DNA of 64,000 nucleotides from positions 2,976,001 through 3,040,000 of the forward strand of contig OZ219753.1 in assembly GCA_964291315.2 (NCBI GenBank), read 5' to 3'. The position numbers were made by a program, and so were the translations under genes. Below the pieces are notes generated by a model. It searched no databases. It was not told the DNA's origin and saw nothing but the letters and a program-made list of their open reading frames with translations. This DNA comes from Candidatus Poribacteria bacterium (GTDB taxonomy: Bacteria > Poribacteria > WGA-4E > WGA-3G). Positions 16,198-58,061 of this stretch are shown in pieces (position 1 is the stretch's first letter; each line of letters opens with the position of its first letter).

Positions 16198-17409
16198 TTA
16201 ATACCGCTGGTCTGCCAGACTATGCAGACTCATCACCTCATTTCCGCGCGGGTCGATGACTTTGACAGCGACCTGTTTATGCGGTCCGGGACGGAACGGG
16301 AACGACGTTGTGCCGCTGAAACGCTCAAACTGCTCTTCGTCAATAACGCCTCTCAAGGCACGGGCGATCTTCTTCCACGCGGTCTTGTCCGGAAAGAAGG
16401 CTTGTGTGATGCAGAACGTGCGCCCATCGTAGTCGGTATCCACAAACCACGCCGCCACCTTATCCGCACCCGCAGAGCGCACGGTGTTGTCTGACGGGTC
16501 GTAGATGTCCACGCCCTCCATCTTGACAATATATTCCTCTTCGCCGGCTTCCTCAAGGGTTGTGCGGGGCATTCCGAAGACGGTAAAGAGCTGGGTTGAG
16601 GGTGTCTGCTTGAGGAGTCCGCCCATTGCGACGTCGGGGTTGATGTGTGCCATGTGGATACGGACCCTGGGGTTCGGATCGTCTTGGATAACTGCTTGTG
16701 CGGCGCCGTCAAAACTGAACCCCGCGAAGACGAGTTCATCGTAGCCGCGGCGGGAGGCGATGGGCAGACACGCCTCGACTTGCATTGCGGTGATGGGGCC
16801 GTGCTGTGGTCCAAATGCGACGGCGACGGAGGATTCAGTATCGCAGTGTTTCCAAGTGCCTTCTGCGTGGAGGATATCGGCTTCGAGGGGGTCGAGGGTG
16901 TCGAATTTCAAGGTGTTGTTATCAGGGAATCGCACGCCGTCGTGTCGGAGGTGATGTATCATCTGTTCGAGGTATGCCTCTGCATTGACTGCTTGGTGCG
17001 TGTCGGTCTCGGCATCAAAAGTAGTATCGACTTCTTCGGGTTGTGCTGCGATAGGTGAATCAAGGTCGAGCGACTCTTCTGCGGGTTGCACTGCCTCTAC
17101 GGTGAAGGGACCGGTGACGCGCACTCGTTTTCTGTCGATGTGTGGCTGATCGACAAGTTCTTCGGTTTCAGATGCTGCGGCGATGCATGCGTTGACGTCG
17201 TTCATCTTTGCTTGCCACGCTTTGCGGTAGTCTACGAGAGCGTGTTGGAGTGGTTTTGGCCAGTCGGGGTCTGTATCGAAGGGTACTTGCCAGTCGTTCC
17301 AATGTGTATCTGGGAGGTGCCAGCGGCATCTGTCTGCGTCTGTGATGGCAGTTTTGCCGTGTTTTTTCTGCTTATGTTTGAGTTTTGCGAGGAGTTTTAT
17401 GCGAAGCGG
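16198..17409 (-). CDS. mod: Type III Mod-like DNA methyltransferase, C-terminal part (out of frame after poly-C tract)
   Basis: Open frame from the tract: PLRIKLLAKL..WQVPFDTDPDWP..RVTGPFTVEAV..WFVDTDYDG..AVKVIDPRGNEVM. Confidence 0.85.
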   Translation of the reverse strand, partial: PLRIKLLAKLKHKQKKHGKTAITDADRCRWHLPDTHWNDWQVPFDTDPDWPKPLQHALVDYRKAWQAKMNDVNACIAAASETEELVDQPHIDRKRVRVTGPFTVEAVQPAEESLDLDSPIAAQPEEVDTTFDAETDTHQAVNAEAYLEQMIHHLRHDGVRFPDNNTLKFDTLDPLEADILHAEGTWKHCDTESSVAVAFGPQHGPITAMQVEACLPIASRRGYDELVFAGFSFDGAAQAVIQDDPNPRVRIHMAHINPDVAMGGLLKQTPSTQLFTVFGMPRTTLEEAGEEEYIVKMEGVDIYDPSDNTVRSAGADKVAAWFVDTDYDGRTFCITQAFFPDKTAWKKIARALRGVIDEEQFERFSGTTSFPFRPGPHKQVAVKVIDPRGNEVMSLHSLADQRY

Positions 17410-19153
17410 GGGGGGTAATCTGTGATAAGTTGTTGTTCAGAGCATCCAACTTCTCTTTCAATATCGGCTCATGCTTGGCAAATATCGGATCCAGGGCAGT
17501 GTTTTGAGCGATACTTTTGAGGGTGATATGTGGAACCTGTTTATTGATGAAGCCACCCGCGATGCCTTTCGACTCATCCTTGAGTTTGTAGTAATCAAAG
17601 GCTCCTGTCAATAAGCGTTGTCGGGCTAGAGCAACAGCCACGCGGCTGGTATCAATCGTTATCCAGCGTCTGCCCCACTGCTCAGCAACATAGGCAGTGC
17701 TGCCGCTTCCACAAGTTGGATCGAGGACAAGATCACCGGGATCTGTGGTCATGAGAAGGCAGCGTTCAATGACTTTTGTTGAGGTTTGAACAACATATCT
17801 ACGATCATGAGCGCCTCCTACATCATTCCATAGATGATCAAGCCGCTTGACAGGAAAATCAGAATATTTCTGTACATAACCCGGCCTTACTCCAGAACCC
17901 CACACTCTGTCGGCAGCTAGCAATGACTTCATTCCAGCCTCAGTAGTTTTCCAACTGTACCGCCCTCGCTTGATAACTCGACCTTCAAAATGAAAGTCGT
18001 AGTAACAAGACTGGCCATAACCCGTAGACAACAGGTTACCAAGTGTGAATGGAACAGCACCATCCGGTAGCAGCGACGGTTTTTGCTGTTCCTCTCGAGT
18101 CATTTGACGTTTGGTTCCATCAGCTAACTCAACATATTTATATGATGTCCCTTCGCCGATATCCTTTGAGATAAACAATGGGCGGTATTTGCATTTGCTT
18201 TTGTTTATCGCAAACCACAAAATATAGTCACAACGACTAACAAGCAACTTGCTACCTAACGGGGAAGTCTTAGTAAAGGTTATCAAACTTACAAAATTCT
18301 CACTTCCGAAAACTTCGTCCATGACACACCGCACCCGATGCACATTCTCATCTCCTATCTGCACAAAAATACTGCCGCTATCGGTCAACAACTCCTTCGC
18401 AACAATCAACCGATCCCGCAGATACGCAAGATATGAGTGGATACCCAAACGCCACGTATCCCGATACGCCTTGATCTGCTCACGCTCACGCGTCAAGTCC
18501 TGGGGACGCTCTCTTACGTCCCGCTGAAAAGTGCTCGGTTGGAAGTTAGAGGCAAACTTGATACCATACGGCGGGTCTATGTAGATCATCTGCACCTTGC
18601 CTCCGAGATTTTCACGTTGTGCAAGGGAACTCATCACCGTGAGACTATCCCCAAGAATGAGGCGATTCGCCCAATCCACATCGTGCTGGTAAAAGTCAAC
18701 AGCTGTGCTGTAATCCTGCTGCGGATCAGCGAAGAGTTCACGTTGGACGTTTTGGCGCTTTGCGGTTTTCAAGATTGCTTTGCTGCTGATGCGTTCGTGG
18801 ATGTGGAGTGCCACGGGGTCGACGCTGAGGGCGGCTGTCTCCTGTTTGCCTGCCCATTCAAGCCAGGGGGCGTGGTGTCGGAGTGCCTCGGCGAGGGTCT
18901 TTGCCTCCTCTGCGGAGAGGGCGCGCTGCTGTGCGGTGTGGAGGAGTTCGGGGAGTTTGTCTGCGTCTGCGTCTGGGTCGGATCGGAGGCGGGGTGGCAG
19001 GTGTGGGTTGTATGCGTATTGCCGTTTCGGGGGCTCTTGGATCTTCCCTTGTGCGGCGATGCCTGCGGGCGGGTTATTCTTTCGCGTAGCGGTGGCGTGT
19101 CGGTAGTCAGCTACGTGTTTTTTTGTTTTGGGCGTAGTTCTTTTTTTGGACAT
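17372..19153 (-). CDS. mod: Type III Mod-like DNA adenine methyltransferase, N-terminal part (frameshift-truncated)
   Basis: NRLILGDSL, QMIYIDPPYGI (motif IV), target recognition region, VLDPTCGSGSTAYVAEQWGRRW (motif I); beta-class motif order. Confidence 0.9.
   Translation of the reverse strand: MSKKRTTPKTKKHVADYRHATATRKNNPPAGIAAQGKIQEPPKRQYAYNPHLPPRLRSDPDADADKLPELLHTAQQRALSAEEAKTLAEALRHHAPWLEWAGKQETAALSVDPVALHIHERISSKAILKTAKRQNVQRELFADPQQDYSTAVDFYQHDVDWANRLILGDSLTVMSSLAQRENLGGKVQMIYIDPPYGIKFASNFQPSTFQRDVRERPQDLTREREQIKAYRDTWRLGIHSYLAYLRDRLIVAKELLTDSGSIFVQIGDENVHRVRCVMDEVFGSENFVSLITFTKTSPLGSKLLVSRCDYILWFAINKSKCKYRPLFISKDIGEGTSYKYVELADGTKRQMTREEQQKPSLLPDGAVPFTLGNLLSTGYGQSCYYDFHFEGRVIKRGRYSWKTTEAGMKSLLAADRVWGSGVRPGYVQKYSDFPVKRLDHLWNDVGGAHDRRYVVQTSTKVIERCLLMTTDPGDLVLDPTCGSGSTAYVAEQWGRRWITIDTSRVAVALARQRLLTGAFDYYKLKDESKGIAGGFINKQVPHITLKSIAQNTALDPIFAKHEPILKEKLDALNNNLSQITPPASHKTPRKTQT
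17408..17415 (+). repeat. G8 homopolymer tract at mod frameshift
   Basis: aagc GGGGGGGG taatc; G7 fuses both parts into 984 aa. Confidence 0.9.
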
Positions 19154-19196
19154 CGTGTCTCCTCTTTTAGAAAAATTTGTGATAAACAGAAATATA

Positions 19197-19225
19197 AATA
19201 TAGCAGATAGGTGTTTTTAGGTCAA
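19197..19225 (-). promoter_or_regulatory. Promoter of mod
   Basis: Minus strand TTGACC-17bp-TATATT with TGn extension. Confidence 0.55.
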
Positions 19226-19286
19226 CGGAAAAGTAAGGGGTGTGATAGGGTGGGTACCAACCTATAGGAAAAGGGGAAATTGAGAG

Positions 19287-19359
19287 CTCCCCCAGACGGA
19301 CTCGAACCGCCGACACGATGGTTAACAGCCATCTGCTCTACCAACTGAGCTATGGGGGA
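19287..19359 (-). tRNA. tRNA-Asn (GTT), CCA not encoded
   Basis: TCCCCCA/TGGGGGA acceptor stem, AGCTCAGTTGGTAGAGC D-arm, CT-GTT-AA anticodon loop, GGTTCGAGTCC T-arm; 73 nt. Confidence 0.97.
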
Positions 19360-19371
19360 ATATTGGTATTA

Positions 19372-19485
19372 ATTATAACCTATTTTGCTATCGTTTGCAA
19401 ATTAAATTTCACTTTTTCTGGAGCGCGCGCGAAACAGGCTGACCTTAATTATACCCAAATTCGCGAACGCTTGCAAATTAAATTT
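19372..19485 (-). promoter_or_regulatory. Tandem duplicated promoters for tRNA-Asn
   Basis: Two TTGCAA-17bp-TATAAT (19400-19372 and 19476-19448), each preceded by AAATTTAAT. Confidence 0.7.
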
Positions 19486-19528
19486 GTGGGCCGTTATCCA
19501 ATAGGCAAGAACGGATTTGAATCTTAAA

Positions 19529-21868
19529 CTATTCCACAGAAAAGATGGCTGTTTTACCAGTTGCGATCCATCTTGCAAGCACGCTCTGTTCGGGAATGCT
19601 TACGTTCCTATGCTCAAACGGTTCCGCTCCGAAGTTAGCGAATATTTCCACTGTATCGCTAAACGTCGTGCGTTGGATTAATCGGTCGGGGCTTATCCAC
19701 TCGAAATGCGTCATCGGCTGTCCGCCGATTTGTCGATGCAAGGGCGAGAAGAAGGCGTAGTATCGTTTTATCCACTTTCTATGCTTTGAAAACCTAGGTA
19801 TGTTCAGATGATACAACGGCGGTACATTGTAGAGCAGCTCTAAGAGTGCTACTGTTGCGACTGCATTTTTAAACTTAAGGCTGCTGTATCCCCAATGATG
19901 CGTGGTTATCACCGAATCGTGAAACACCGTTTGGTAAAGCGGGAGACGGAAGCGAGGGTCATAATAGAGATAAAAATAACGCGATTTGAGAGGTACCTGT
20001 TTGACGTGGATTGCCGGTGCCTCGGGGGGCCAGTATCCGCCTACATAGTAAGGCGAGTTTTTGTCGTTCATATCTGGATCTCCCCAACCGATGACAGGGC
20101 TCATCATCCCGTGTGCGAAATGGATTGTTCCTGCAGCGTAGGCTGAACCGCCTTCTGAGCCGACAACTAGGTCGTGTGTATTGCGAATCCACGTCATACG
20201 TGCCAACCGCGCCTTCATGTCGTCGAGCTGAGTCGCGGGATGCGAAGGCGAATAATCGTCAAAGAGTTCACCGTAAGCGTCACAGTCTATGAACCATGAG
20301 TTAAAGCCGTTTGGCATCTGTGCAAGGATACTGTTGACGCGATTTTCGACATAAGGCTTTGCGGCGATCGGGCTTAAGTGGTAACCTTTCTGCTTAAATC
20401 CCTTGCTTTTCGTTCCATCGGCGTTGACAATCGCTCCACTTTCATAAAGGGATGCGTCGAACTGTGCGGTTTCCCATGTATCTTTTTCGTTTGGCGGGTG
20501 GATGCTGTGATAAGAGTCGTAGGGGGCAACCAAGTAGCCGAGTCTTTTCGCTTTTGCAACGGCAGCGGGGTGTCGGAACCCCTCTTGCCATGTGTCAAGA
20601 CCGAGCCAGAGTCTATCTAGTCCATTTTCTGAAAGACGTTGCAAGAGTTTGACAGAGAACCCGTCTCCCCATTCATCAGGGTGGCGTAGGACGTTCGGAA
20701 ACGCTGCGTAGAGCAGGAGAACGTTGCGGCGGTAGAGCTCCGTCAGCGAGAGTGTAGCGGGGACTCTAGAGCAGAGTTCCTGCGTTTCCGGTGTAAGAGA
20801 GATACCTAACCAAGCCGTGGGGTTGTAAAAATTTGGTTTCTCCAGCTGCTTACTTATCGCGCGGCTCATAACCCGCAGGGCGTAATTAGAAGGACGATCC
20901 GATTGGGCAATCTCTTGGAGGGCTTTCCGCGCTGCTGCGTTTAGTTGTGAAAAGAGGCGGGATTCAACGTTTTGTGCTGTCCATTGATCTCCGCCACGGT
21001 TGAGCTTTACAGCGAACGTCTTCCAATCCGTCACGTCGTATCGGCTGAGCAATTTACCACCCCAGAGGTAGGCGTGCGCAGCACCTAGCAATTTCTCTGC
21101 CTCAGGGGTCTGTTTGATCTTCTCAGCAAACGGAACGAACTCACCCTCCTGCTGTAGCCATCGTCGATATTTCTTGGCAGGTGCAACGGGCGACGCTTCA
21201 GTGAGTGATATTCGGAGTCCGTATCTTTTCTCCTCCCAATTCGGGGTGAAGGTGTGTGATACCTGCATCCCCAACGCGGCTCCTTTTTCAGTCTTATCGA
21301 ACAGAATCTGGTTGTTGAAAGGATTCGTTAAAATATAGGTGAGGGTTCTTTCCCGGAGATCCAGTCCCCAAAACGGCATAGAGAGTCCCGCCGTTGTGTT
21401 TATCGGGCCCTGTTCAGTGAGAAAATCTTGCCATGTTTGATCATGTTTCGGCACGTAGCTTCCTTCAAAAAAAGGGAAAATATAGGCGTGGATAGGCTCA
21501 GTGTCTTCGATGATCGGCCACACTAAAGTTCGCGTATCGTTTGCCGGAGCGTCCTGAACGAATTCAAAGCTGAGTGAGTCCGCTGTTAGTTGCGTATGGA
21601 GTGTCAGAAAACGTTCAGGCAATTTCCAAGTGGCGGTGTCGATTTCTTGAGAGAGAGCCGTTGCACTGCCTAATCCTGTCTGTCCGGATGAAATCCCGAT
21701 CGTGATATCGGTGTGCGCGGGATAGGCGTTGACAGCAAGCGTCTCGAGAATAATCTCAACGTCCCAGAGGTCATTGCTGAGCCGAATCTTTTCAGGCGGG
21801 ATGCCTATCCCTATAGAAGTCAGCAGAAACATCCCAACTGCTAGAAAGTAAAGCTGTGGTTTAAACAT
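19529..21868 (-). CDS. Secreted glycoside hydrolase, GH129/GH101-like
   Basis: Signal peptide; GYLVAPYDSYH, WFIDCDAYGE, VVGSEGG, RLPLYQTVFHDSVI, LLYNVPP. Confidence 0.7.
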   Translation of the reverse strand: MFKPQLYFLAVGMFLLTSIGIGIPPEKIRLSNDLWDVEIILETLAVNAYPAHTDITIGISSGQTGLGSATALSQEIDTATWKLPERFLTLHTQLTADSLSFEFVQDAPANDTRTLVWPIIEDTEPIHAYIFPFFEGSYVPKHDQTWQDFLTEQGPINTTAGLSMPFWGLDLRERTLTYILTNPFNNQILFDKTEKGAALGMQVSHTFTPNWEEKRYGLRISLTEASPVAPAKKYRRWLQQEGEFVPFAEKIKQTPEAEKLLGAAHAYLWGGKLLSRYDVTDWKTFAVKLNRGGDQWTAQNVESRLFSQLNAAARKALQEIAQSDRPSNYALRVMSRAISKQLEKPNFYNPTAWLGISLTPETQELCSRVPATLSLTELYRRNVLLLYAAFPNVLRHPDEWGDGFSVKLLQRLSENGLDRLWLGLDTWQEGFRHPAAVAKAKRLGYLVAPYDSYHSIHPPNEKDTWETAQFDASLYESGAIVNADGTKSKGFKQKGYHLSPIAAKPYVENRVNSILAQMPNGFNSWFIDCDAYGELFDDYSPSHPATQLDDMKARLARMTWIRNTHDLVVGSEGGSAYAAGTIHFAHGMMSPVIGWGDPDMNDKNSPYYVGGYWPPEAPAIHVKQVPLKSRYFYLYYDPRFRLPLYQTVFHDSVITTHHWGYSSLKFKNAVATVALLELLYNVPPLYHLNIPRFSKHRKWIKRYYAFFSPLHRQIGGQPMTHFEWISPDRLIQRTTFSDTVEIFANFGAEPFEHRNVSIPEQSVLARWIATGKTAIFSVE

Positions 21869-21923
21869 TTGTAGATATCCACGGTGAGAGGCAGCGTTTG
21901 AAAGGTGCCTGTGTGAAAGTCCG

Positions 21924-22682
21924 CTATTTTGATAGTTCCTCCCATAAGGCGCGATAGTAATTCATGACACGCATGGGGTCAGTGCTGCCTGGGATTTCTG
22001 CAAGCGTATAACCTGCGTACCCTGACGTTTTCAAGGCGGTAAAGAGCTCGCGCCATGGATACTCGCGGCGATAGAGTTCCGTGATATGCACCAGACCGAT
22101 TTTGTCCTTCACTAGCTCAAAGTTGTTTTGGATAGAACCGTCTTCGACTTCAGCGAAGTTGGAATTCCAACAGACGTAGACGTTATCGTGGTCGGCGACA
22201 TCAATAATGGTTCGGATGTGTCGGAGTTCAGACGTGCCACTGCCGTGTACTTCCAGGCGGATCTGAACGCCGAGGTTGGCAGCGAATTCGCCACACTCTC
22301 GTAGTGCCAATCCGATTTGCACCAATGTTTTTTCGACAGGTACTTCCACGGGGAGCCCGTTCGGACGCACCTTAACGCCGGGGGCCCCGACATCCGCCGC
22401 CAGTTGCGAATACAGCTTTGTGCCTTCTATGTTCTGACGGACGATCGCTTGATCTACAACGTGATAGTCAAACGCAGAACCTAAACCGGCAATCTCAATT
22501 GGGGAATCCTCAAATTGTTGTTTCACAGCTGCTCGTTCACTTGTTGAGCGCTCGACTTCAACGCCGTGTGCATGCGTTGTCCGCAACTCCACGCCCTCGA
22601 ATCCTGTCGCCACACACGTTTCAATAATTGTAGCGATATCCCAATTTTTTGCCATGTTATATGTAACCAAACCGAGTTTCAT
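21924..22682 (-). CDS. Sugar phosphate isomerase/epimerase (xylose isomerase-like TIM barrel)
   Basis: GFEGVELR, IRLEVHG, VHITE, YTLAE metal-binding pattern. Confidence 0.85.
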   Translation of the reverse strand: MKLGLVTYNMAKNWDIATIIETCVATGFEGVELRTTHAHGVEVERSTSERAAVKQQFEDSPIEIAGLGSAFDYHVVDQAIVRQNIEGTKLYSQLAADVGAPGVKVRPNGLPVEVPVEKTLVQIGLALRECGEFAANLGVQIRLEVHGSGTSELRHIRTIIDVADHDNVYVCWNSNFAEVEDGSIQNNFELVKDKIGLVHITELYRREYPWRELFTALKTSGYAGYTLAEIPGSTDPMRVMNYYRALWEELSK

Positions 22683-22691
22683 AAACTCTCC

Positions 22692-23264
22692 TTATTCAAA
22701 AAGTTGTGCAACTTGACACGTGAATCCCTCTATAACCTCTTCACCGGTAAGCGTGTCGTCAATGGTGAGCGTTTTGATGTCCGTTTGTGAGCGATAGCAG
22801 GTTACCGTTTTCCCGACCGGTTCGATAACCCACACAAGCGGAGTGCCGGCATCCAGATAGGCAAATGCCTTTTCAACTACCCGATATTGAATATCCGTTG
22901 GTGAAACAACTTCAACGGCGAGGTCGGGCGGCACAAGGGATACCTGCCGTCTGTTCTCAGGCAACTGTGCTGTCGAAACAAACGCGATATCCGGTTTAAC
23001 TACCCGATCCCGCAGCTTGAAGTTAGTATCCGCCGGATACAAACGTCCCAACCGATGCTCACGAACATGCAAACTTAAAAGAAAACTGAGATTCATACTA
23101 ATATCCCCGTGTTCCATTGTCGGTGGTGTCATCGGTATTAATTTCCCTGTCACATATTCGTACCCCTCTAAATCGGATTGACAAAATTCATCTAGCGTCA
23201 TGTCGGTCTCTATCGGTGCAAGGGATATCGCTGCTTGTTCATAACCGTTTTTTTGGGTATTCAT
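22692..23264 (-). CDS. Uma2 family endonuclease
   Basis: KPDIAFV, PDLAVEVVSP, YLDAGTPLVWVIEP; ATG 23264 behind GGAGG. Confidence 0.92.
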   Translation of the reverse strand: MNTQKNGYEQAAISLAPIETDMTLDEFCQSDLEGYEYVTGKLIPMTPPTMEHGDISMNLSFLLSLHVREHRLGRLYPADTNFKLRDRVVKPDIAFVSTAQLPENRRQVSLVPPDLAVEVVSPTDIQYRVVEKAFAYLDAGTPLVWVIEPVGKTVTCYRSQTDIKTLTIDDTLTGEEVIEGFTCQVAQLFE

Positions 23265-23300
23265 CAAGGTTCCTCCGCCTTCAACGCGTGCTGTTTTCAA

Positions 23301-23329
23301 TTGCATCCCACGCGATTTTTTGCTATAAT
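23301..23329 (+). promoter_or_regulatory. Sigma70 promoter
   Basis: TTGCAT-17bp-TATAAT with TGn extension. Confidence 0.65.
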
Positions 23330-23368
23330 GTTCGTCAGAAGATCAAAAAGTTTAAGGAGAACCCCCAC

Positions 23369-24196
23369 ATGGCTTACGTGCTTGAAGACGAATTTGGTGA
23401 TATTATTGGTAAAGCCCGGCGCGGTCAACACCTGTCTCAGCGTCAAACCGCCACCGCTGCTGGCATCACAGAGGCAGACCTCAAGCGTATGGAAAAGTAT
23501 ACCTTAAAACCGACAGAATCGCAAGTTTTTCGGCTTGCAGCGGCACTCAATTTAGACGGAACGAAATTGCTTGATATTGCGAGAGAGGCCTGGGAGCCAG
23601 CTCCGCTTCAACAAGCAAGCGATGCGAATCTAGAGGTTATCACGATCCGTGCGCCCGTTGGGGGGTGGCCCGTGAATGCCTATCTGTTGGTATGCAATGC
23701 CAGCGATGCCGCTGCAGTTATTGACACGGCTGCACACCCGGATCTAATTTTGGCAGAAGTCGACGCGCGTGCTCTGAAACCGACTGCGATCCTCTTGACG
23801 CACGCCCACAGTGACCACACCGATGGACTACAGCAACTTCAAACCGCTATCGGATGTGAAACGTATATCCATAAGAACGAGCCGAAACCGCAGAGCAACA
23901 AACAGTTGTGTGAAGTTTCACACGCAGATACCCTCTGTGTCGGTGAACTGACAGTAACGGTTCTTAATACACCGGGACATACCCCCGGTGGCTGTAGCTT
24001 CCTCACGGAGAACACAGCATTCGTCGGGGATGCGATCTTCGCAGGTTCAATTGGGGGTCCTAATATCTCTTATCAGGCTGAAATTGAGAGCGTGCGGGAC
24101 AACCTCTTGTCGCTTCCAGCTAGGGTTAGACTTTTCCCGGGGCACGGCCCTGCCACGACTGTGGGCGATGAGAAATTACACAACCCGTTTTTCTAA
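23369..24196 (+). CDS. Metallo-beta-lactamase fold hydrolase with N-terminal XRE-type HTH
   Basis: THAHSDH, TPGHTPG, GDAIF, PGHG; N-terminal IGKARRGQHLSQ..AGIT..LKRME; AAGGAG RBS before ATG 23369. Confidence 0.88.
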   Translation: MAYVLEDEFGDIIGKARRGQHLSQRQTATAAGITEADLKRMEKYTLKPTESQVFRLAAALNLDGTKLLDIAREAWEPAPLQQASDANLEVITIRAPVGGWPVNAYLLVCNASDAAAVIDTAAHPDLILAEVDARALKPTAILLTHAHSDHTDGLQQLQTAIGCETYIHKNEPKPQSNKQLCEVSHADTLCVGELTVTVLNTPGHTPGGCSFLTENTAFVGDAIFAGSIGGPNISYQAEIESVRDNLLSLPARVRLFPGHGPATTVGDEKLHNPFF

Positions 24197-24328
24197 TTTT
24201 TCGAGATATACGAATTATTTTATCATGCAGAGGCGGTTAAAATTGCGTAAAGCGGCTGGGTGATGCTTGGATCATCCGCAAGGCGCAATAAAACGGTAGC
24301 CGGATTTAATCGTAAAAAAAATAAAAAA

Positions 24329-26202: not shown

Positions 26203-26305
26203 GAGTAGTTGTCAAGAAGCCTTGTTGTAGATGTCGACTGCAGTAGTCGTTTATAAATAGATAATTCTGCTTGATATTTTCAGTCGTTTGAGATACCCTA
26301 TCTAC

Positions 26306-27127: not shown

Positions 27128-27213
27128 GTATCTTGCGGTGTTACGGCTTTAACTTTCAGAGAATAGACAATATGCAGTAGAATTTGCAGCACTGCTTTGT
27201 AATAGCGAAAAAG

Positions 27214-28821: not shown

Positions 28822-29050
28822 CCTAGGGCGAGAGAAGTTTGCTTCTTCTGGTAGGTGGGATTTAGAAATCACGCCCGGCCCGCTGTAGAAGAAAACTCCG
28901 ATTCCCACCATCTTTCAAATAATTCCGCAACCCCTTAAAACGAAATGAGCCGAGAAGGTTAAAGATTATGGTTGAATCGAAACGCGGATTAAGGTATACT
29001 ATAGCGTAATAATCAGATTTAGCATAGTCGGATCGGAAGGAATCCTTCAG

Positions 29051-31351: not shown

Positions 31352-31396
31352 GGGCGTTGCCGCTGCGGATGTTTCCGTTGCGAACCCCACTTAAAC

Positions 31397-43458: not shown

Positions 43459-43474
43459 TGATAGTTAGCGCCCA

Positions 43475-43527
43475 GTAGTTAAAGGGAGCATTGCCCGTTC
43501 GCGGCGCGCGATGAATTGCGGCACTAC
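43475..43527. repeat. Degenerate inverted pair of GTAG-type REP-like elements
   Basis: Plus GTAGttaaagggagcattgcccg and minus GTAGtgccgcaattcatcgcgcg facing each other in an intergenic gap. Confidence 0.45.
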
Positions 43528-43578
43528 AAACGGGATTTCAATTCAGAAAATCAGTAATAAAAAGGAGTCAAATACGCT

Positions 43579-45162: not shown

Positions 45163-45184
45163 CAGTCATAACTGATAGGTATTT

Positions 45185-48843: not shown

Positions 48844-48854
48844 AGGAGGAATTC

Positions 48855-49829: not shown

Positions 49830-49877
49830 CAGATGTGCTGCCTCAATTTTATAAATCCTATATTGTAAGGAGCCTAA

Positions 49878-51203
49878 ATGCTACTTGAAAGATTGTTTCA
49901 GTTGAAAGAAAGCGGCACCACGGTGAAACGTGAGCTGATTGCGGGGCTCACAAATTTTATGGCGATTTCATACATAATCTTTGTGCAACCTTCGCTGTTT
50001 TCACAAGTAGGCATGGATCCTGGGGCTGTCATGGTTGCAACCTGTGTATCGAGCGCGATTGCTTCGTTTTTCATGGCGTTTCTGACCAATTATCCTGTTG
50101 TGTTAGCCCCTGGGATGGGGCTCAACGCCTACTTTGTTTTTGAAGTTTGCCAGGGCTTAAACTTACCGTGGCAGGAAGCGTTAGGCATCGTTTTTATAGC
50201 AGGCATGTTGTTCTTCATTCTCTCATTTGTTGGGATCCGTGAGGCGGTGATGAATGCTCTCCCTCCTTCACTTCAGAATGCTATCGCTATCGGGATTGGA
50301 CTGTTTATCGCGCTCATCGGTCTACAGATGAGTGGGATAATTACAAGGCATCCCGCCACGTTTGTAACTCGGAGCGATCTTTTATCGACGCCTGTGTTGC
50401 TTTCTCTTTTCGGTATTGCTGTGACGCTCGCGCTCTTGGCGCGTAAAGTGCGAGGTGCTATTCTCATCGGAATCCTTGTGGCCACTGTCCCGAACCTCAT
50501 ATTTGGGCTTGCCCAGTACGAGGGGGTCGCCGCACCGCCACCTCCCCTTGAACCGACGTTTTTCAAGCTGCGATTTCCGAATGTTTTTGCCAAACTAGAA
50601 CTGATCTCCGTAATTTTTGTTTTCTTTGCTATAGACATGTTTGATAGTATCGGCACGCTCACGGCTATCGGTTACAGAGCGGAATTGCTTGAGGAAGGGA
50701 AACTTGCAAAAGCGAAGCGTGCTCTTTTAACAGACGCAGGTAGTACGGTTGGAGGTGCTTTACTCGGCACCTCAACTGTCACATGTTATATTGAGAGCAC
50801 CACGGGTATTACTGTGGGCGGACGGACAGGGCTCACTGCTGTCTTTACAGGGATTTTTATGCTGCTCTCCATTACGTTCTATCCGCTCGTTAAGATCGTA
50901 GGCGGAGCATACATTGTAGAAGGTATCCAACTCCATCCGATTATCGCCCCTGCGCTCATTATCGTTGGCGGACTGATGCTCAGAAATGTTAACCAGATCG
51001 ATTGGGATGACATCACAGAATCGATCCCGGCGTTCCTTACGATACTGATGATGCCCCTCTCGTTTAGCATTACAGATGGTATCGGTTTTGGACTCATCTC
51101 TTTGGCGTTCCTCAAGTTGGTCACGGGGCGTGGAAAAGAGGTGAATCCTATTATCTATTACTTCGCACTCTTCTTCATTGCCTGTTACATCGGAGATCTA
51201 TAG
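49878..51203 (+). CDS. NCS2/AzgA family nucleobase permease
   Basis: LAPGMGLNAYF, DMFDSIGT, YIESTTG, GGRTGLTA, SITDG. Confidence 0.92.
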   Translation: MLLERLFQLKESGTTVKRELIAGLTNFMAISYIIFVQPSLFSQVGMDPGAVMVATCVSSAIASFFMAFLTNYPVVLAPGMGLNAYFVFEVCQGLNLPWQEALGIVFIAGMLFFILSFVGIREAVMNALPPSLQNAIAIGIGLFIALIGLQMSGIITRHPATFVTRSDLLSTPVLLSLFGIAVTLALLARKVRGAILIGILVATVPNLIFGLAQYEGVAAPPPPLEPTFFKLRFPNVFAKLELISVIFVFFAIDMFDSIGTLTAIGYRAELLEEGKLAKAKRALLTDAGSTVGGALLGTSTVTCYIESTTGITVGGRTGLTAVFTGIFMLLSITFYPLVKIVGGAYIVEGIQLHPIIAPALIIVGGLMLRNVNQIDWDDITESIPAFLTILMMPLSFSITDGIGFGLISLAFLKLVTGRGKEVNPIIYYFALFFIACYIGDL

Positions 51204-51323
51204 GCGGGAGCTCCTCCTAAATCAGACAGCTGTGGCTGCAGTCGGTGTTGAAAAAACACGTCCACAAAAAGATACCGTGAGTGCAGCACTTTCAAAACAC
51301 GCGCACAAAGGAATAATATTATA

Positions 51324-54300
51324 ATGCCCCGTATTTTTGATAACATTGATCACCACTTATTACCTGCCCTGCAACAGGCACTTAAAACTGCCACCCATGC
51401 TGACTTCTGTGTCGGTTATTTCAACCTTCGCGGCTGGAAAGGACTCGCTGCTCATATTGAAAATTGGAAGGGCGGTGACGGGGAATGCTGCCGTTTGCTC
51501 GTTGGGATGCAACGGCTGCCCGAGGAGGAGCTCCGAAAAGTCAAGCGACTCGGTCAGCAAAATGTTGGAATAGACAACCAAACCGCCCTCCGTATCAGAC
51601 AGAGATTAGCGGAGGAGTTTCGAGAACAGTTGACTGTCGGTGTACCAACAGGCACAGACGAAATCGGCTTACGTCAATTGGCAAAACAGTTGCGTGCCGA
51701 AAAAGTAAAGGTAAAGCTTTTTCTGGAACATCCTCTTCATGCAAAACTCTATCTCATCTACCGCCATGACCTGATCGCGCCGACCGTGGGTTATCTTGGC
51801 AGCAGTAACCTAACGCTGGCGGGTCTTTCGCGGCAGGGTGAGCTGAACGTTGACATCGTTGACGCGGATGCTTGCGAAAAATTAAAGGGATGGTTTGAAG
51901 ACCGATGGAACGCCCGATGGTGCATCGATATTTCTAAGGAATTGGTCGAAATTATTGAGCAGAGTTGGGCGCGTGAAGAGCGGGTCTCGCCATATCACAT
52001 CTATGTCAAAATGGCGTACCATTTGTCGCAAGAGGCGCGTGCTGGGTTAACTGAATTTCAGATTCCCCGCGAATTTCAGGATAAATTGTTTGAGTTCCAA
52101 ACGGCGGCGGTCAAAATCGCAGCACATCATCTCAACAAACGCGGAGGGGTTCTCATCGGGGATGTCGTCGGACTCGGCAAAACACTTATGGGAACGGCAC
52201 TTGCACGTATACAAGAAGACGATTATGATCTTGAAACGTTAATTATTTGCCCCAAAAACCTCGTCAACATGTGGGAGAGCTATCGAGAAGAGTACCGTCT
52301 ACGCGGAAGAGTGCTTTCGATGAGCCGCGTTATCAATGAGTTACCAGACCTTCGCCGCTACCGCCTTGTTATGATTGATGAGAGTCACAACCTCAGAAAC
52401 CGGGAAGGTAAACGCTACCGCGCTATTCAGGAATATATCCATGAAAATGAAAGTAAGGTTATCCTCCTCTCCGCAACCCCTTACAACAAAACCTATCTCG
52501 ATCTTTCCAATCAACTCCGTCTATTTCTAGAGGAAACCGAAGACCTCGGTATTAGACCGGAGCAATATATCAAGAGTCTAGGCGGCGAAACGGAGTTCAT
52601 TCGGAAACATCAAAGCGGGGTGCGTACGCTTTCAGCGTTTGAACAGAGCGAATATATCGACGATTGGCGCGAACTCATGCGCCGCTACCTTGTACGCCGA
52701 ACGCGTGGTTTTATCATGCAAAACTATGCAGAAACGGACCCACAGACAGCACAGAAATTTCTTTTGTTTAGCGATGGTAAACGTTCCTATTTCCCGACAC
52801 GTCTGCCTAGAACAGTAAAGTTCGCCATTGATGAGCAAAACTGTGATGACACCTACGCGCAGCTATACTCGTCTTCTGTCGTGAATGTCATTGGCAGCCT
52901 TAAGCTTGCACGGTATGGTCTCGCGAATTACATTGTCGATACAGACACACAAACGCTCACTTCAAATGAGGTAACCAGCCTACAAAATCTCTCTCGTGCC
53001 GGACAGCGGTTAATGGGGTTTTGTCGGACGAACCTTTTTAAACGGCTTGAAAGTAGTGGGCAGGCGTTCATCCAATCCGTTGACCGGCATATCCTCCGAA
53101 ACTATGTTTTTCTTCACGCCATTGAAAACCAAAAACCGCTACCGATTGGATCGCAAAATGCGGATATGCTGGATTCTCGGTTTGAAGATAGAGATGCTGA
53201 TGATGCCACGCTCATATTAGATGCTGGTGATGACGATGACATACAGATAGATAGCACAAATTCACAGACGAACTCATACACAACCTCTGATTATCAGCAA
53301 CGCGCCGCGGCTATCTATCAACTCTACACGACGAAGTATAAAAATCGGTTTAAATGGCTGCGCCCCAGTCTCTTTCATGCCGTGCTTCAGGAAGAGCTGA
53401 CCGGGGATGCAGTCGCACTCATCCAGGTATTGCAACAATACGGTACATGGGACCCCGAAAAGGACGCGAAGCTCAACGCCCTTCAGGCGCTCTTAACCGA
53501 AATACATCCAGGGGATAAGGTTCTAATTTTCACGCAATTTGCGGATACGGTGCAGTATCTGACAGATGCCCTTTCAGCGCGCGGGTTGGCGAAAATCGCC
53601 CCTGCAACCGGCAATTCAGCAGATCCCACGGTTTTAGCATACCGTTTTAGTCCTGTCAGCAACGGCAAACGGAGTACGGTTAAGTCGGAAGACGAATTGC
53701 GGGTGCTTATTAGCACCGATGTGCTGAGTGAAGGGCAGAATTTACAGGATTGTTCAATCGTTGTCAACTATGACTTGCCGTGGGCGATTATACGTTTGGT
53801 CCAACGCGCCGGCAGGGTTGATAGAATTGGGCAAACTGCGGAAAAGATCTTGTGTTATTCATTTCTACCTGCGGATGGGGTCGAGCGCATTATTAACTTG
53901 CGGGACCGCGTCCGCACGCGCCTCCAACAGAATAAGGAAGTTGTCGGCACAGACGAAGCTTTCTTTGAGGACGATGCGGAAGAGGGCAGCCAAACGATCG
54001 TTAATCTCTACAACGAAAAGGCGGGGCTGCTTGATGATGAGCGAGATACCGATGTAGATCTCGCCTCTCACGCGTACCAGATATGGAAAAACGCTATTAC
54101 GCAAGAGCCACATTTAGAAAAGATTGTCTCTGACCTTCCATCTGTTGTTTATTCAACGCAGCCGCATACACCCACCGATAGCGAACCTGAAGGTGCACTC
54201 GTCTATATCCGTACAGGCCAAGAAAACGACGCACTCGCTTGGATAGATAGAGACGGCTCGAACGTAACGGAATCCCAGTTTGCTATTCTGCAAGCGGCAG

Positions 54301-54719
54301 CGTGTGGACCCGATACTGAGGCACTCCACCCCCTTGAAGAGCATCATCGCCTCGTCGAGGAAGCGGCAAAGATGATTGTCTCTGAAGAACGATCTGTTGG
54401 CGGACAGCTCGGACGCCCCTCGGGGGCCCGGTTCCGCACCTATGAACGCTTGAAGGACTACGTTTCATCGGTTGAAGGTACACTCTTTGCAACACCGCAG
54501 CTCAAAAAGGTTATCGAGAATATTTACCGGCACCCGCTGCGACAAAGAGCGACCGATACCCTCAACCGTCAACTCCGCAGCGGTATCTCTAATGAAGACC
54601 TTGTAGCACTGGTGATCGATTTATGGGAAACGGATCGACTCTGTATTATTGATACGGAACAGCAAACGCGAGAACCACAAATTGTGTGTTCATTAGGGCT
54701 CCGCACAAAGGATGCATAA
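51324..54719 (+). CDS. PLD-family nuclease fused to SNF2-type helicase
   Basis: VGYF, HAKLY..GSSNLT (HKD-type), [33 protein letters not shown]. Confidence 0.9.
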
Positions 54720-54745
54720 ACCTACGCGCCCTCCGAAAAACAGTG

Positions 54746-54774
54746 TTGAAAGCCATCTCGTTATCGTGTATAAT
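54746..54774 (+). promoter_or_regulatory. Internal promoter for the methyltransferase
   Basis: TTGAAA-17bp-TATAAT. Confidence 0.65.
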
Positions 54775-54804
54775 GTGTGAAAACGAATGAATAGGAGAAC
54801 GTCT

Positions 54805-56928
54805 ATGCTTCATCGAGAACAAATTCTTGAATATCTTAGAGCGACTAACTTTAGCGCTCTCTTCACCCAAGCACTCGGTTGGGATCACTACACACAGGCG
54901 CTAAATATCAGCGTAGACACCACCGAGTGGTACCTCTCCGCAGTCGCAGAGAAACGCGGCATGATCGTCTTTGAATGCCACGCAACAGACGCAGATGGAC
55001 AACTCCCCAAGTATGCGCTGCGCCGGAAGATCCAGCAGCAAGTTGCTCGCTCCGCCTATGAGCATATTATCATCTACACCGATGCAAGCAAAACAACGCA
55101 CCTCTGGCAGTGGGTCAGACGAGAGCCGGGCAAGCCGGATGCGTGCCGAGAACACCGGTATCACACGGCACAATCGGGGGAGTCGCTGATACAAAAGTTA
55201 GAGCCGATCGCCTTCAGTCTTGACGAAGAGGCCGAACTGACGCTCTCTGACGTGACAGGGCGCGTCGGGAGCGCGTTCTATGCGGAGCGGGTGACCAAGA
55301 AGTTTTACGATCGCTTCAAGCGAGAGCAGACGGCGTTCTTATCGTTCCTCACGGGCATCCCGGATGCCGAGGTGCAGCGCGCATATGTCTCTATCCTGCT
55401 GAATCGGCTGATGTTCATCTACTTCATTCAGAAGAAGGGGTTTCTCAACAGTGACCCAGACTATCTGCGGCACACGTTGACGGAGACGCAAAAGAGTGGC
55501 AGCGACCGGTACTATAGAGCGTTTCTCTGTCCGCTGTTCTTTGAAGGGTTTGCAAAGCCGGAGGCGGAACGGGGCAGAGCTGTGGTTGGGCTCCTCGGGG
55601 ATGTGCCGTATCTCAACGGCGGCATCTTTGAGCAGCACGCCATAGAGACGCATCACGGGGAGCGTATTGAGATCCCGGATGCGGCGTTTGAGCAGCTCTT
55701 CGGCTTCTTTGATGAGTATCAGTGGCATTTGGACGATCGCCCGTTGAAAAACGACACGGAGATCAACCCGGATGTGCTGGGATATATCTTTGAGAAATAC
55801 ATCAACCAGAAGCAGATGGGTGCCTACTACACGAAGGAAGACATCACCGAGTATATCAGCAAGAACACGATTATTCCGTTTCTCTTTGATGCGGCGCGTC
55901 GGTCGTGTGAGATAGCGTTTGCGGCGGATGGTACGGTGTGGCAGCTGCTGCGAGATGCCCCGGAGCGCTATATCTACCCGGCTGTGAGCAAAGGTGCTGT
56001 GTTAGAGTTGCCGCCCCATATCGCTGCGGGGGTTGCGGATGTCTCTAAGCGCACAGATTGGAACACTGTTGCGCCTTCCGAGTATGCCTTGCCGACCGAG
56101 ATATGGCGGGAAGTCGTTGCGAGACGACAACGCTACGAGATGCTGCGTGCGAAGCTGGTCAACGGAGACATCGGGAGCATCAACGATCTGATTACCTACA
56201 ATCTAGATGTCCGTCAGTTCGCACAAGACGTAATCGCAGGCTGTGAGGGTCCTGAGCTGCTGCGTGCGTTTTGGCAGGCGATCAGACACATCAGCATCCT
56301 GGATCCGACGTGTGGCTCGGGGGCGTTCCTCTTCGCCGCTGTGAATATCCTCGTGCCGCTCTATGAGGCGTGTCTCGACCGAATGCAAGCCTTTCTCAAC
56401 GACGACTCGGGTGCCGGCCGGCGCTATGCTGACTTCCGAGAGACGCTCGGGCGTATAGAGCAGCATCCGAACAGAGCCTATTTTATTCTCAAGTCTATTG
56501 TGATAAATAACCTCTACGGTGTGGACATCATGGCGGAGGCGGTTGAAATCTGTAAGCTCCGGCTCTTCCTGAAGATGGTCTCACAGATTGAAGATGTGCG
56601 GCAGATAGAACCGTTGCCAGACATCGACTTCAACATCCAGTCGGGGAATAGTCTCGTCGGGTTCTCGACGTATGATGCGGTAGAGCGAGCGGTGACGGGC
56701 AAGCTGGACTTTGACAACACGATGCGGCGGCTTCGGGAGAAGGCAGAGGATGTGGATGCGTTGTTCCAAGCGTTTCGCAGGCAACAGACGGCGTTAGGCG
56801 GGGTCGTGACGCGTGCGGATAAGCAGGCATTGCGAGAGAGACTGGGTGTCTTAGAAGATGAGTTGAACATCTATCTTGCGGGTGAGTATGGCGTGAACAC
56901 TTCACATAATATAAGCGGGGGGGGGTAA
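54805..56928 (+). CDS. Eco57I-like gamma-class DNA adenine methyltransferase, N-terminal part (frameshift-truncated)
   Basis: LNRLMFIYFIQKKG, PYLNGGIF, GAYYT, LDPTCGSGAF, NLYGVD, GNSL; ends GGG-stop at a G9 tract, before NPPY. Confidence 0.88.
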   Translation: MLHREQILEYLRATNFSALFTQALGWDHYTQALNISVDTTEWYLSAVAEKRGMIVFECHATDADGQLPKYALRRKIQQQVARSAYEHIIIYTDASKTTHLWQWVRREPGKPDACREHRYHTAQSGESLIQKLEPIAFSLDEEAELTLSDVTGRVGSAFYAERVTKKFYDRFKREQTAFLSFLTGIPDAEVQRAYVSILLNRLMFIYFIQKKGFLNSDPDYLRHTLTETQKSGSDRYYRAFLCPLFFEGFAKPEAERGRAVVGLLGDVPYLNGGIFEQHAIETHHGERIEIPDAAFEQLFGFFDEYQWHLDDRPLKNDTEINPDVLGYIFEKYINQKQMGAYYTKEDITEYISKNTIIPFLFDAARRSCEIAFAADGTVWQLLRDAPERYIYPAVSKGAVLELPPHIAAGVADVSKRTDWNTVAPSEYALPTEIWREVVARRQRYEMLRAKLVNGDIGSINDLITYNLDVRQFAQDVIAGCEGPELLRAFWQAIRHISILDPTCGSGAFLFAAVNILVPLYEACLDRMQAFLNDDSGAGRRYADFRETLGRIEQHPNRAYFILKSIVINNLYGVDIMAEAVEICKLRLFLKMVSQIEDVRQIEPLPDIDFNIQSGNSLVGFSTYDAVERAVTGKLDFDNTMRRLREKAEDVDALFQAFRRQQTALGGVVTRADKQALRERLGVLEDELNIYLAGEYGVNTSHNISGGG
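56917..56925 (+). repeat. G9 homopolymer tract at methyltransferase frameshift
   Basis: aagc GGGGGGGGG taatc; G10 or G7 restores one ORF of about 1085 aa. Confidence 0.9.
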
Positions 56929-58061
56929 TCACAGATTACCACAAATGGCTTGACACGCATAAGCCCTTCCACTGGTTTATCGCTTTCTACGGCATCCTTA
57001 AAGACGGCGGATTTGATGTCATTATCGGAAACCCGCCCTACATAGAATATAGCAAAGTCAAAAAGGATTACACAGTAAAAGGATACGAAACCGAAACGTG
57101 CGGCAATTTATACGCCTTTGTGTTTGAAAGAAGTTTTCGGCTGCTTCAAAAGAATGGGTGGAAATCAATGATAATCCCGCATTCCGCATACTGCACCGAT
57201 AGAATGGCACCCCTCCAACTTTTATTCCAGCACCATAAATACGCTGCGTGGATGCAAACATATGCTATGAGTCCGTCGAAGCTATTTATCGGAGCAGATC
57301 AACGGTTGGCAATTTATATTCTTCAACAGAGTTCAAAGGCATCCAATCTGTTGTATACATCCGGCTATAACAGATGGAACGAGATATTTCGCGAATATCT
57401 CTTCAGTGTCGCAGAATACGCAGAGGTTACGCATATCTCATTTCAGAATTCTGTGCCGAAAGTCCATAGTGAGCTCGAGCAAAACGTATGGAAGAAACTA
57501 TCTCAGTTCTTAGCTTTAGGCAAACACCTTGACACGAAGCGGGCTCCTTACACAGCATATTACCATAACGCAGCTCGCTATTGGATTCGAGCAATGAACT
57601 TTGTTCCCTACTTTTGGAACGAGCGAGATGGTGAGAAAATCTCAACTCATATTAAACCGTTGTACTTCAGAACCGAGTTAGAGGCATCTGTCGCCACAGC
57701 AACTTTGAACAGCTCGCTTTTTTATTGGTGGTTTGTTCTTCTTTCTAATTGTCGTGACTTAACCTTGCGTGAGGTTAGAAGTTTTCCGATGGGAATAGCT
57801 CAAATGGAGCAGCAAACCAAGCAGAGCCTTTCCCAGCTGTGCAAGGACTTGATGGTAGATCTAAAGCATCACGCAAAACGCAAGAAAGCGTCCTATAAGA
57901 CCACTGGACAGGTCATCTACGATGAGTTTTATCCGCGGCATTCCAAGCACATTATAGACGAAATAGACCGCGTGCTTGCCAAACATTACGGCTTCAGCGA
58001 TGAGGAATTAGACTTCATCATCAACTATGACATCAAATATCGGGTGGGTTTGAGAGATTGA
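56925..58061 (+). CDS. Eco57I-like methyltransferase, C-terminal part (catalytic NPPY plus target recognition region)
   Basis: Open frame from tract: VITDYHKWLDTHKPFHWF..GGFDVIIGNPPY..GNLYAFVFER..LNSSLFYWW..IDEIDRVLAKHYG. Confidence 0.88.
   Translation, partial: VITDYHKWLDTHKPFHWFIAFYGILKDGGFDVIIGNPPYIEYSKVKKDYTVKGYETETCGNLYAFVFERSFRLLQKNGWKSMIIPHSAYCTDRMAPLQLLFQHHKYAAWMQTYAMSPSKLFIGADQRLAIYILQQSSKASNLLYTSGYNRWNEIFREYLFSVAEYAEVTHISFQNSVPKVHSELEQNVWKKLSQFLALGKHLDTKRAPYTAYYHNAARYWIRAMNFVPYFWNERDGEKISTHIKPLYFRTELEASVATATLNSSLFYWWFVLLSNCRDLTLREVRSFPMGIAQMEQQTKQSLSQLCKDLMVDLKHHAKRKKASYKTTGQVIYDEFYPRHSKHIIDEIDRVLAKHYGFSDEELDFIINYDIKYRVGLRD

Follow-up and report, generated by a model that had tools for sequence, protein, structure and literature searches.

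A shared poly-G element at methyltransferase loci of a Candidatus Poribacteria genome: probably a large set of phase-variation switches resting in the OFF state

In a 64,000-nucleotide stretch of a Candidatus Poribacteria genome (hereafter, the window), two unrelated methyltransferase genes are each split between two reading frames at a run of G residues, and both runs are embedded in the same short element, AAGC-Gn-TAATC. The gene at site 1, on the minus strand, belongs to the beta-class N6_N4_Mtase family (MTase_III in PADLOC), while the gene at site 2, on the plus strand, is Eco57I/MmeI-like (Type IIG in PADLOC); both classes are as previously assigned from the sequence. We believe that the two sites are probably homopolymeric-tract phase-variation switches, or contingency loci, which would work by ordinary slipped-strand changes, on a large scale and with OFF as the resting state. 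An earlier reading of the window (hereafter, the original prediction) had proposed a dedicated cis-element that installs an ON/OFF switch in defence methyltransferases and/or marks a crossover point for the exchange of specificity modules. Our results support the switch and do not support the crossover or recombinase part. What is new here is a genome-specific flank that unrelated gene families have in common, a library of 28 genes set to OFF by default and, in one family, a split between methylation and a nuclease-like part. The genome studied (G000) is a 4.40-megabase assembly with 48% G+C, consisting of four contigs and rated 95.2% complete. The window genes belong to two paralog families, A (site 1) and B (site 2), and their parts are as follows.

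17404-17429: site 1 element, read directly as AAGC, G8 (17408-17415), TAATC, TGT, GATAAG.
17372-19153, minus strand: family A gene before the run, 593 amino acids, with a complete N6_N4 domain at residues 187-510 (PF01555).
16198-17403, minus strand: family A gene after the run, 401 amino acids in the other frame.
17770-18290, minus strand: variable cassette (specificity region) of family A, delimited by the pairwise identity of 6 paralogs.
56913-56940: site 2 element, read directly as AAGC, G9 (56917-56925), TAATC, ACA, GATTACC.
54787-56928, plus strand: family B gene before the run, 713 amino acids, Type IIG up to and including methyltransferase motif I.
56928-58061, plus strand: family B gene after the run, 377 amino acids, with the NPPY motif and the C-terminal specificity part.
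57085-57950, plus strand: variable region of family B, delimited by the pairwise identity of 7 paralogs.

At site 1, the right flank after G8 is TAATCTGTGATAAG, and the coding (minus) strand reads GATTA-C8-GCTT. At site 2, the element runs into a perfect 7+3+7 palindrome, GGTAATC-ACA-GATTACC (56924-56940). Direct reading bears out the original prediction in the letters, run lengths and positions of the common element, in the perfect repeat at site 2 and in a 13-mer common to both coding strands (ATCACAGATTACC, found on each). The pattern AAGC-G6+(0-5)-TAATC has two matches in the window and none in 100 shuffles. Genome-wide, the exact form AAGC-G(7-11)-TAATC occurs 22 times, with runs of G8 or G9, against zero occurrences of the backward-read control, so the match indeed goes beyond chance; the relaxed pattern G8-TAATY-NNN-GAT occurs 26 times. 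The genome contains 112 G/C runs of at least 7 nucleotides (47 of 7, 45 of 8, 18 of 9 and 2 of 10), counts that show no steady drop with length, as 47 versus 45 for lengths 7 and 8 illustrates. AGC precedes 34 of the 65 runs of at least 8, and TAA follows 45 of them; runs of 5, 6 or 7 have no preferred flank anywhere in the genome. The 14-mer TAATCT[GC]TGATAAG occurs 19 times in the genome, in each case directly after G8 and never alone, and intermediate forms with G4 to G6 before it are absent from the genome.

All 33 runs of the form AGC-Gn-TA(A/T)T in the genome lie inside or upstream of methyltransferase genes, which agrees with the anticipated enrichment of the motif in restriction-modification genes. 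The set is composed of 28 intragenic runs in five paralog families and five runs upstream of two further methyltransferase families:

Family A: 6 copies, gene type as at site 1, with the run read as C on the coding strand.
Family B: 7 copies, gene type as at site 2.
Family C: 5 copies, classical Type III mod genes, three of them in tandem and followed by a ResIII gene.
Family D: 8 copies, a second Type IIG family.
Family G: 2 copies, mod genes resembling those of family C.
E runs: 3 copies, about 220 nucleotides upstream of a 929-amino-acid DUF1156 methyltransferase-like gene.
H runs: 2 copies, about 470 nucleotides upstream of a 485-amino-acid N6_N4 methyltransferase gene.

The DUF1156 methyltransferase-like gene has six copies in the genome, three of them with a run. 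The 65 long runs divide into 33 at methyltransferase loci, 16 in a promoter-type family and 16 others, the 16/16 split of the non-methyltransferase runs resting on a rough motif rule. On the coding strand, the run consists of C in family A and of G in families B, C, D and G. The run follows the complete methyltransferase domain in family A and precedes that domain in families C and G. Families B and D are distant relatives, and the family D run aligns with approximately residues 230-250 of family B, the run of which lies at residue 713. Protein homology therefore cannot explain the common element, as had been argued from the window, because the run sites are non-homologous and occur in both orientations. 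In spite of the opposite coding strands, families A and C have 25 identical nucleotides, AGC-G8-TAATCTGTGATAAG, and families C and D have about 38 nucleotides in common with two or three differences. The repeat comprises just the gene (16209-19115 for A and 54769-58067 for B), and the surroundings of the A, B and D copies have nothing in common.

With respect to the reading frame, all 28 intragenic runs are out of frame (22 of length 8 and six of length 9), and the genes are in frame only at a length of 7 or 10. The original prediction had stated this for the two window genes (G7/G10, or C7/C10 on the coding strand at site 1), and it holds equally for the 28 genome copies. Run length varies within families, since family B has two copies at G8 and five at G9, and the two family G copies differ, one being G8 and the other G9. 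In the G-coded families, AGC is directly followed by the run, the first G of which occupies codon position 1 (AGC GGG GGG G.. GTA ATC), and the ON peptide reads S-G-G-(G)-V-I-x-D. The flank TAATCTGTGATAAG holds stops in both wrong frames, TAA in one and TGA plus TAA in the other. Of the 22 copies in the G-coded families, 19 have a wrong-frame tail of 0 or 2 codons; the tail extends over 8 and 11 codons in two G8 copies of family B and over 13 in one G9 copy of family G. In family A, it amounts to 11 codons. The ratio of nonsynonymous to synonymous substitution rates (dN/dS) after the run is 0.20 in family A (among 6 paralogs), 0.30 in B (among 7 paralogs), 0.26 in C, 0.32 in D and 0.35 in G, and before the run it is 0.17-0.31 for B, C, D and G. 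Such ratios indicate that the part after the break is under purifying selection, which points to switches and not to dead genes.

From these observations we infer the following scenario, ON phenotypes included. Replication slippage would change the length of the G/C run; lengths of 7 or 10 would give one long frame, and lengths of 8 or 9, the sole ones among the 28 copies of this genome, would give a truncated product. Eight to nine is a plausible resting length of G runs, and the frames would be set in such a manner that the resting lengths are OFF, which would keep costly or self-damaging specificities rare. The common flanks would have two sources: descent within each family, with the run at the same site in orthologs, and a lineage-specific homogenisation across families by short-patch templated copying between runs, be it gene conversion or template switching. 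Selection may add to this, favouring a Ser-Gly-Gly-Gly linker followed by immediate stops in both wrong frames.

Long-read assemblies are known to be prone to errors in homopolymers, and every copy is out of frame; one might therefore suppose that the true lengths are 7 or 10 and were miscalled, or else that the genes are decaying. Two copies do carry extra damage: a family B copy at C1:360080, with only 227 amino acids open upstream, and a family D copy at C4:2332208, with 651 amino acids downstream. On the other side, only 3 of the 380 A/T runs of 8-9 nucleotides in the genome lie at frame junctions, while 117 are in frame in long open reading frames (ORFs) and 260 are neither; among the 63 G/C runs of 8-9, 23 lie at frame junctions and 10 are in frame, all ten being of length 8. 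A general homopolymer assembly error is unlikely, because A/T runs are rarely found at frame junctions and ten G/C runs of 8 are in frame. The low dN/dS after the break (0.20-0.35) and the recurrence of this split in the independently assembled genomes of other species and among public gene calls also speak against artefact or decay, and we regard this explanation as very improbable.

The main rival is programmed recoding, in which the runs would be fixed slippery sites where the polymerase or the ribosome slips, yielding a constant low level of the full-length enzyme, with the flanks acting as a signal. All 28 copies are indeed one slip from the long frame (+1 at G8, -1 at G9), the spread of lengths is narrow, both halves are under purifying selection and, at G9, the TAA directly after the run is a context that possibly favours a slip. 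This rival is weakened by the opposite shifts that it would need within one family, namely in B (two copies at G8, five at G9) and in G (one each). In addition, the element is reversed in family A, so that a signal at the RNA level would differ there, and orthologs have G9-G11, interrupted runs or none. All in all, we deem programmed recoding unlikely.

The comparison with relatives shows how far the element is peculiar to this genome. The exact motif is absent from 40 related genomes (24 from its genus and 16 from its order), and the relaxed pattern is found in two of 64 other genomes of the genus, once each and both times in family A orthologs. Scans of sequence collections with AAGC-G7-(0-4)-TAATC-NNN-GAT, which may leave out records of the window's own genome, returned four genome, five metagenome and zero viral stretches. 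We rejected these nine matches as true elements, all of them being G7 plus filler and attributable to chance. Long G runs (up to G15) abound in other species of the genus as well, but with other flanks.

Family A has matches in 41 of 65 genomes, and eight of nine fetched loci could be aligned, L027 being left out for want of a nucleotide match. Five of the eight orthologs are run-less and read L-A-E-V/I-T-P-D/E-I-R at this site, with the same length as the C7 form. The other three (in genomes G045, G075 and G077) carry C9-C11 at the same site and are all split; they read ...CACAAATTA-Cn-(A)(C)GCAA..., versus ...CACAGATTA-C8-GCTT in G000, that is, GCAA for GCTT and AATTA for GATTA. In the tree, the six G000 copies of family A form one clade (100/100) on a long branch, which implies amplification or homogenisation in the lineage of G000; the run in this family may have had a single origin.

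For the other families, ten of 11 loci were read for D, 12 of 13 for B and 11 of 15 foreign loci for C. Run-less orthologs of family D are about 23 codons shorter at the run site, and the run-bearing ones, GATAAGC-G11-AGGCAG in G048 and GATAAGT-GGGGAGGGGGG-ACAGAG in G022, are both split. In family B, eight loci are run-less and shorter by about 6-7 codons; the reading frame stays open across the run in G042 (ATAAGT-GGGGAGGGGGGGG-TAAATC), and the gene is split in G003 (GTAAGT-G8-TAAAAC). Eight family C loci likewise lack a run, being about 18 codons shorter, and the three run-bearing ones (G8-TAATTTGCC in G003, G11-TAATCTATAATAAGT in G073 and G9-TAATACATGATAAGT in G048) are all split. Across species, then, orthologous alleles have runs of 8 to 11, some of them interrupted, and the alignments show that the switch site is old in each family, each with its own ancestral flanks. 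We also observed that the intact family D ortholog of G056 (locus L069) has four tandem units of about 45 nucleotides where other alleles carry the run; the unit includes TGATAA(G/A)..GGGG..TTAGATCC, and its translation gives P-L-I-N-R-T-E-G-L-D-P-S-x-N repeats.

Only G000 has AAGC/AGC and TAATC flanks in all four families A-D. Its family D right flank equals its own family C flank in 18 of the first 19 nucleotides and is not matched by the D alleles of two other species, and its family C left flank (GATAAGAGC) is closer to the D-type GATAAGC than to C alleles elsewhere. Such a pattern induces us to suggest that the flanks evolve in concert by short-patch copying, possibly with the aid of selection.

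The same pattern could be taken as a sign of the dedicated cis-element of the original prediction, here in a form in which a trans-acting protein would recognise AAGC-Gn-TAATC and either set the run length or promote the exchange of specificity modules. This notion draws on the genome specificity of the element (22 copies versus none in the 40 relatives, and chance G7 matches elsewhere), on its confinement to methyltransferase loci, on its independence of orientation and on the convergence of the flanks of four families in this lineage only. A crossover point at the run, however, is contradicted by paralog identity, which is unbroken there: in the two bins flanking 17408 it is 0.95 and 0.97 for family A (n = 6), and in the two bins flanking 56917 it is 0.91 and 0.96 for family B (n = 7). 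The identity breaks lie at about 17770 and 18290 in A and at about 57085 and 57950 in B, so that some 360 and 160 nucleotides, respectively, separate the run from the variable region. The whole of G000 has no match to the tyrosine recombinase profile PF00589 (control genomes match in 14 of 14 cases) and none to the serine recombinase profile PF00239 (12 of 14). The flank occurs only together with the run, no additional copy that could serve as a template being present.

Structure argues in the same direction. The site 2 hairpin (-5.4 kcal/mol, z score -3.4) was equalled by one of 200 shuffles, and it is restricted to the family of site 2, since neither site 1, on either strand, nor family D folds better than shuffled sequence. 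The proposal that the two sites are complementary halves of AAGC-Gn-TAATC-NNN-GATTA-Cn is not supported either, no such full palindrome being present anywhere in the genome. No candidate factor emerged from a search limited to recombinases and reverse transcriptases. As for the insertion of a MITE-like mobile mini-element, the greater length of run alleles of families B, C and D relative to their run-less orthologs speaks for it; against it speak the C7 form of family A, which has the same length as its run-less orthologs, the constant association of flank and run, and the gene as the unit of repetition. The switch was probably not installed at these sites as a ready-made cassette, because orthologs have the run at the same site with other flanks. 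What stands of the proposed cis-element is a non-random motif, tied to methyltransferases and forming a frame switch at G7/G10, and what lacks support is the crossover point and the ready-made cassette. There is a slim chance that a dedicated factor of this kind exists. We see a similarly small one that AAGC-Gn-TAATC is a genome-specific, orientation-independent address, for such a factor or for run-templated copying, that spreads the default-OFF switch and controls run lengths.

Two side observations belong here. The absence of PF00589 matches means that no Xer-type recombinase was found either, which is unusual for a 4.4-megabase genome rated 95% complete. A 368-amino-acid reverse transcriptase ORF has two copies (C4:495366-496007 and C3:32128-32769), each about 4.5 kilobases from a G7 or G8 run flanked as ATAT-Gn-TAAGT. 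Template copying by a reverse transcriptase was considered and rejected: in spite of the two genes, all motif copies are accounted for, and there is no spare template.

Several points weigh against the slipped-strand switches that we favour. None of the 28 copies is ON, versus about one third expected under free drift; G000 shows a narrow range of run lengths, namely 8 and 9 alone; and nine of the ten run-bearing alleles of other species are also split, with one open. Short-patch copying is read from the pattern, and convergent selection may have produced the same flanks. The argument from stop codons does not apply to family A, which has the same 25 nucleotides on the opposite strand. Lastly, the public runs (five, all in the form of contigs) bear on length variation within a population, the defining behaviour of a contingency locus, only up to the repeats, where the contigs break: of the four sets compared over 15000-21000, none bridges 17408-17415 and none has an insertion or deletion there. 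In one of these sets (X5), a loose end at 17408 with a family C left flank looked like a chimera; we discarded it, since it merely reflects the 25 nucleotides common to C and A.

If both sites are such switches, their consequences would differ. At site 2, the product before the run reads ...NISGGG-stop, TAA at 56926-56928 being the stop in the G9 frame. The 713-amino-acid part corresponds to positions 3-719, and the 377-amino-acid part to positions 725-1095, of the 1100-position PADLOC profile PDLC03628 (REase_MTase_IIG), and Pfam detects Eco57I and MmeI_Mtase. By profile, the family B gene is Type IIG from end to end, in two halves, with a predicted endonuclease activity. Mean pairwise identity among the paralogs is 0.35-0.69 in 57085-57950 versus 0.85-1.00 over most of 54769-57082, with one exceptional bin in the conserved part (56387-56434, at 0.72). 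In the OFF state, the break between motifs I and IV would leave a product devoid of NPPY and of the specificity part, and the loss of motif IV (NPPY) and of the specificity part should abolish methylation.

At site 1, the 593-amino-acid product reads ...LSQITPPAS and ends 11 codons past the run. It covers positions 6-612 of the 983-position PADLOC profile PDLC03632 (MTase_III), and its relatives in the PDB are Type III Mod subunits (6k0w, 4zcf and 7dsu). The 401-amino-acid half covers positions 614-980 of the same profile. Mean pairwise identity in family A is 0.16-0.59 in 17770-18290 versus 0.79-0.99 elsewhere in 16209-19115. In most relatives, the 401-amino-acid half is fused to the methyltransferase; in public gene calls it is often a separate ORF, and several of these calls start with the run-derived PP(P).

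An AlphaFold2 model of the 401-amino-acid half, built on 47 aligned sequences, has a mean predicted local distance difference test score (pLDDT) of 82.4, with residues 93-138 disordered. It consists of a helical start, a PD-(D/E)xK-nuclease-like alpha/beta domain at about residues 137-276 and then a beta-sandwich, as predicted by the model. When compared with 48,161 chains in VIA-align, it matched six at Z of at least 8, over residues ~137-276: NucS 2vld (Z 10.5, root-mean-square deviation 2.3, 100 aligned), 1y88 (9.7), MspJI (8.8), LlaBIII (8.7), AspBHI (8.7) and PaqCI (8.4). Five of these are endonucleases, and 1y88 is a protein of unknown function. Foldseek against the PDB gave no match at E of 0.001 or below, and a sequence search of the PDB likewise remained empty below E 0.28. 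Conserved positions in the 47 sequences include the A and G of HAEG, the F.FD of FSFD, and D and LK in NPD..LLK; a canonical catalytic D...(D/E)xK motif could not be placed among them.

A res partner was not found for family A, as no ORF of at least 120 amino acids is common to the 9-kilobase neighbourhoods on either side of the six copies; a ResIII gene does adjoin the tandem family C locus. With no res in the vicinity of its six copies, family A has the appearance of a one-gene restriction-modification enzyme, and the switch would remove only the nuclease-like half, a lead that comes from the structural model. The OFF state at site 1 would probably keep methylation and lose only the C-terminal function.

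The methyltransferase load of G000 is exceptionally large. The genome has 69 matches to PF01555 (N6_N4_Mtase) and 52 to PF07669 (Eco57I), counts that include genes matched as two pieces. About twenty intact Eco57I-like ORFs of about 1030-1070 amino acids carry no run. The tandem locus of family C and the neighbour of the window copy of family B are the following.

C1:317912-328650: tandem family C locus, three Type III mod genes, each split by G8.
51324-54719, plus strand: PLD(HKD)+SNF2 helicase-nuclease, 1131 amino acids, neighbour of the window copy of family B.

In the tandem locus, a 486-amino-acid ORF lies on the opposite strand between the second and the third mod gene, and the last mod gene is followed by an 883-amino-acid ResIII gene that overlaps it. 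The PLD+SNF2 gene is absent from the other six family B copies and lies outside the repeated unit. Directly downstream of the window copy of family A there are two adjacent small ORFs (14623-15743, minus strand; 192 and 176 amino acids, 72% DNA identity) with no Pfam or PADLOC family, not found at the other five A copies. The same gene is also adjoined by a 779-amino-acid GH129-family glycoside hydrolase (19529-21868, minus strand).

It is also important to comment on the runs outside coding sequences. At locus L137 (526-557, that is, C4:2402925-2402956), the stretch from the E-type run to the beginning of the DUF1156 gene contains a terminator-like hairpin with a T run, and the E-type run may sit in a short leader transcript rather than in a promoter. 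Rfam gave no match on loci E and H. A sigma-70 scan covering the runs of both window sites and of locus E returned no sites, and we rejected the notion of the element as a promoter module. Runs of C8-C10 of the promoter type (e.g., at C4:330232, 775135, 2769968, 1202798 and 2059155; context ...TTTTTAGCGATTA-Cn-T.ACTTCACA...TAAGT...) lie 67-280 nucleotides upstream of signal-peptide proteins starting MKRTV.ALSTLAA...AEWQ, and their conserved non-coding context recurs in other species of the genus. Judging by position and context, these runs are probably phase-variable promoters.

Homopolymer switches in single restriction-modification genes are textbook knowledge; their scale here, the common flank and the placement at site 1 are not. 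Both the scale and the state are unusual, with 28 genes that have different specificity cassettes, each behind its own G run and all OFF, and together they resemble a silent store of specificities on which rare cells would draw. One flank recurs in unrelated families, at non-homologous sites and in both strand orientations, and does so in this lineage alone. If the cause is short-patch copying, contingency loci evolve in concert, which would be a new point on how switches are made and kept; if AAGC-Gn-TAATC is instead an address, the switching of a library of about 30 specificities would be directed and not purely stochastic. With the switch placed as at site 1, a cell could start restriction without passing through an unmethylated state, which would offer an easy escape from the self-restriction to which phase-variable systems are prone.

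Finally, we would like to compare these loci with known systems. As in the phasevarion mod genes of Haemophilus, Neisseria, Moraxella and Helicobacter pylori (modH, poly-G), a simple repeat lies inside the ORF of a Type III-class methyltransferase, and allelic specificity cassettes lie between conserved flanks (families A, C and G). Unlike those systems, 13 such genes occur here in one genome, all poly-G and all OFF, and the family A run separates the complete methyltransferase domain from the nuclease-like half that follows it, with no res neighbour. Inversion or shufflon switching of Type I hsdS genes serves the same purpose, namely changing the methylation and restriction repertoire within a clone; it needs a site-specific recombinase and inverted repeats, both of which are absent here.

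The closest parallel to families B and D in the form of the switch is cj0031 of Campylobacter jejuni, a poly-G phase-variable Type IIG restriction-modification gene (PMC4889913), which likewise encodes a single-polypeptide enzyme switched by an intragenic poly-G run. There is one such gene in C. jejuni, while here there are 15 copies in two families, with runs at two non-homologous positions about 470 aligned residues apart and with flanks shared with Type III-class genes. The modal length of G runs in C. jejuni is 9, attributed to the mutational pattern, and when the cj1139 tract was lengthened from G8 to G11, its changes shifted from mostly insertions to mostly deletions (PMC3401435); a similar mutational pattern would explain the resting length of 8-9 here. 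Like the C. jejuni phasome, this genome has tens of G/C runs of 8-10, both in ORFs and in probable promoters. Unlike it, as far as titles and abstracts go, 33 of the 65 long runs here lie at methyltransferase loci with one flank consensus; at that level, no common flank across unrelated genes is described for the C. jejuni phasome, and no paper found reports a common poly-G flank across methyltransferase families. In Helicobacter canadensis, homopolymers switch C-terminal sequences, according to the abstract-level account (PMC2823697), and this resembles what we propose for family A, namely a run near a domain boundary that alters the C-terminal part without abolishing the protein. Unlike the case of H. 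canadensis, the part switched here is a conserved 400-amino-acid nuclease-like module of a restriction-modification enzyme.

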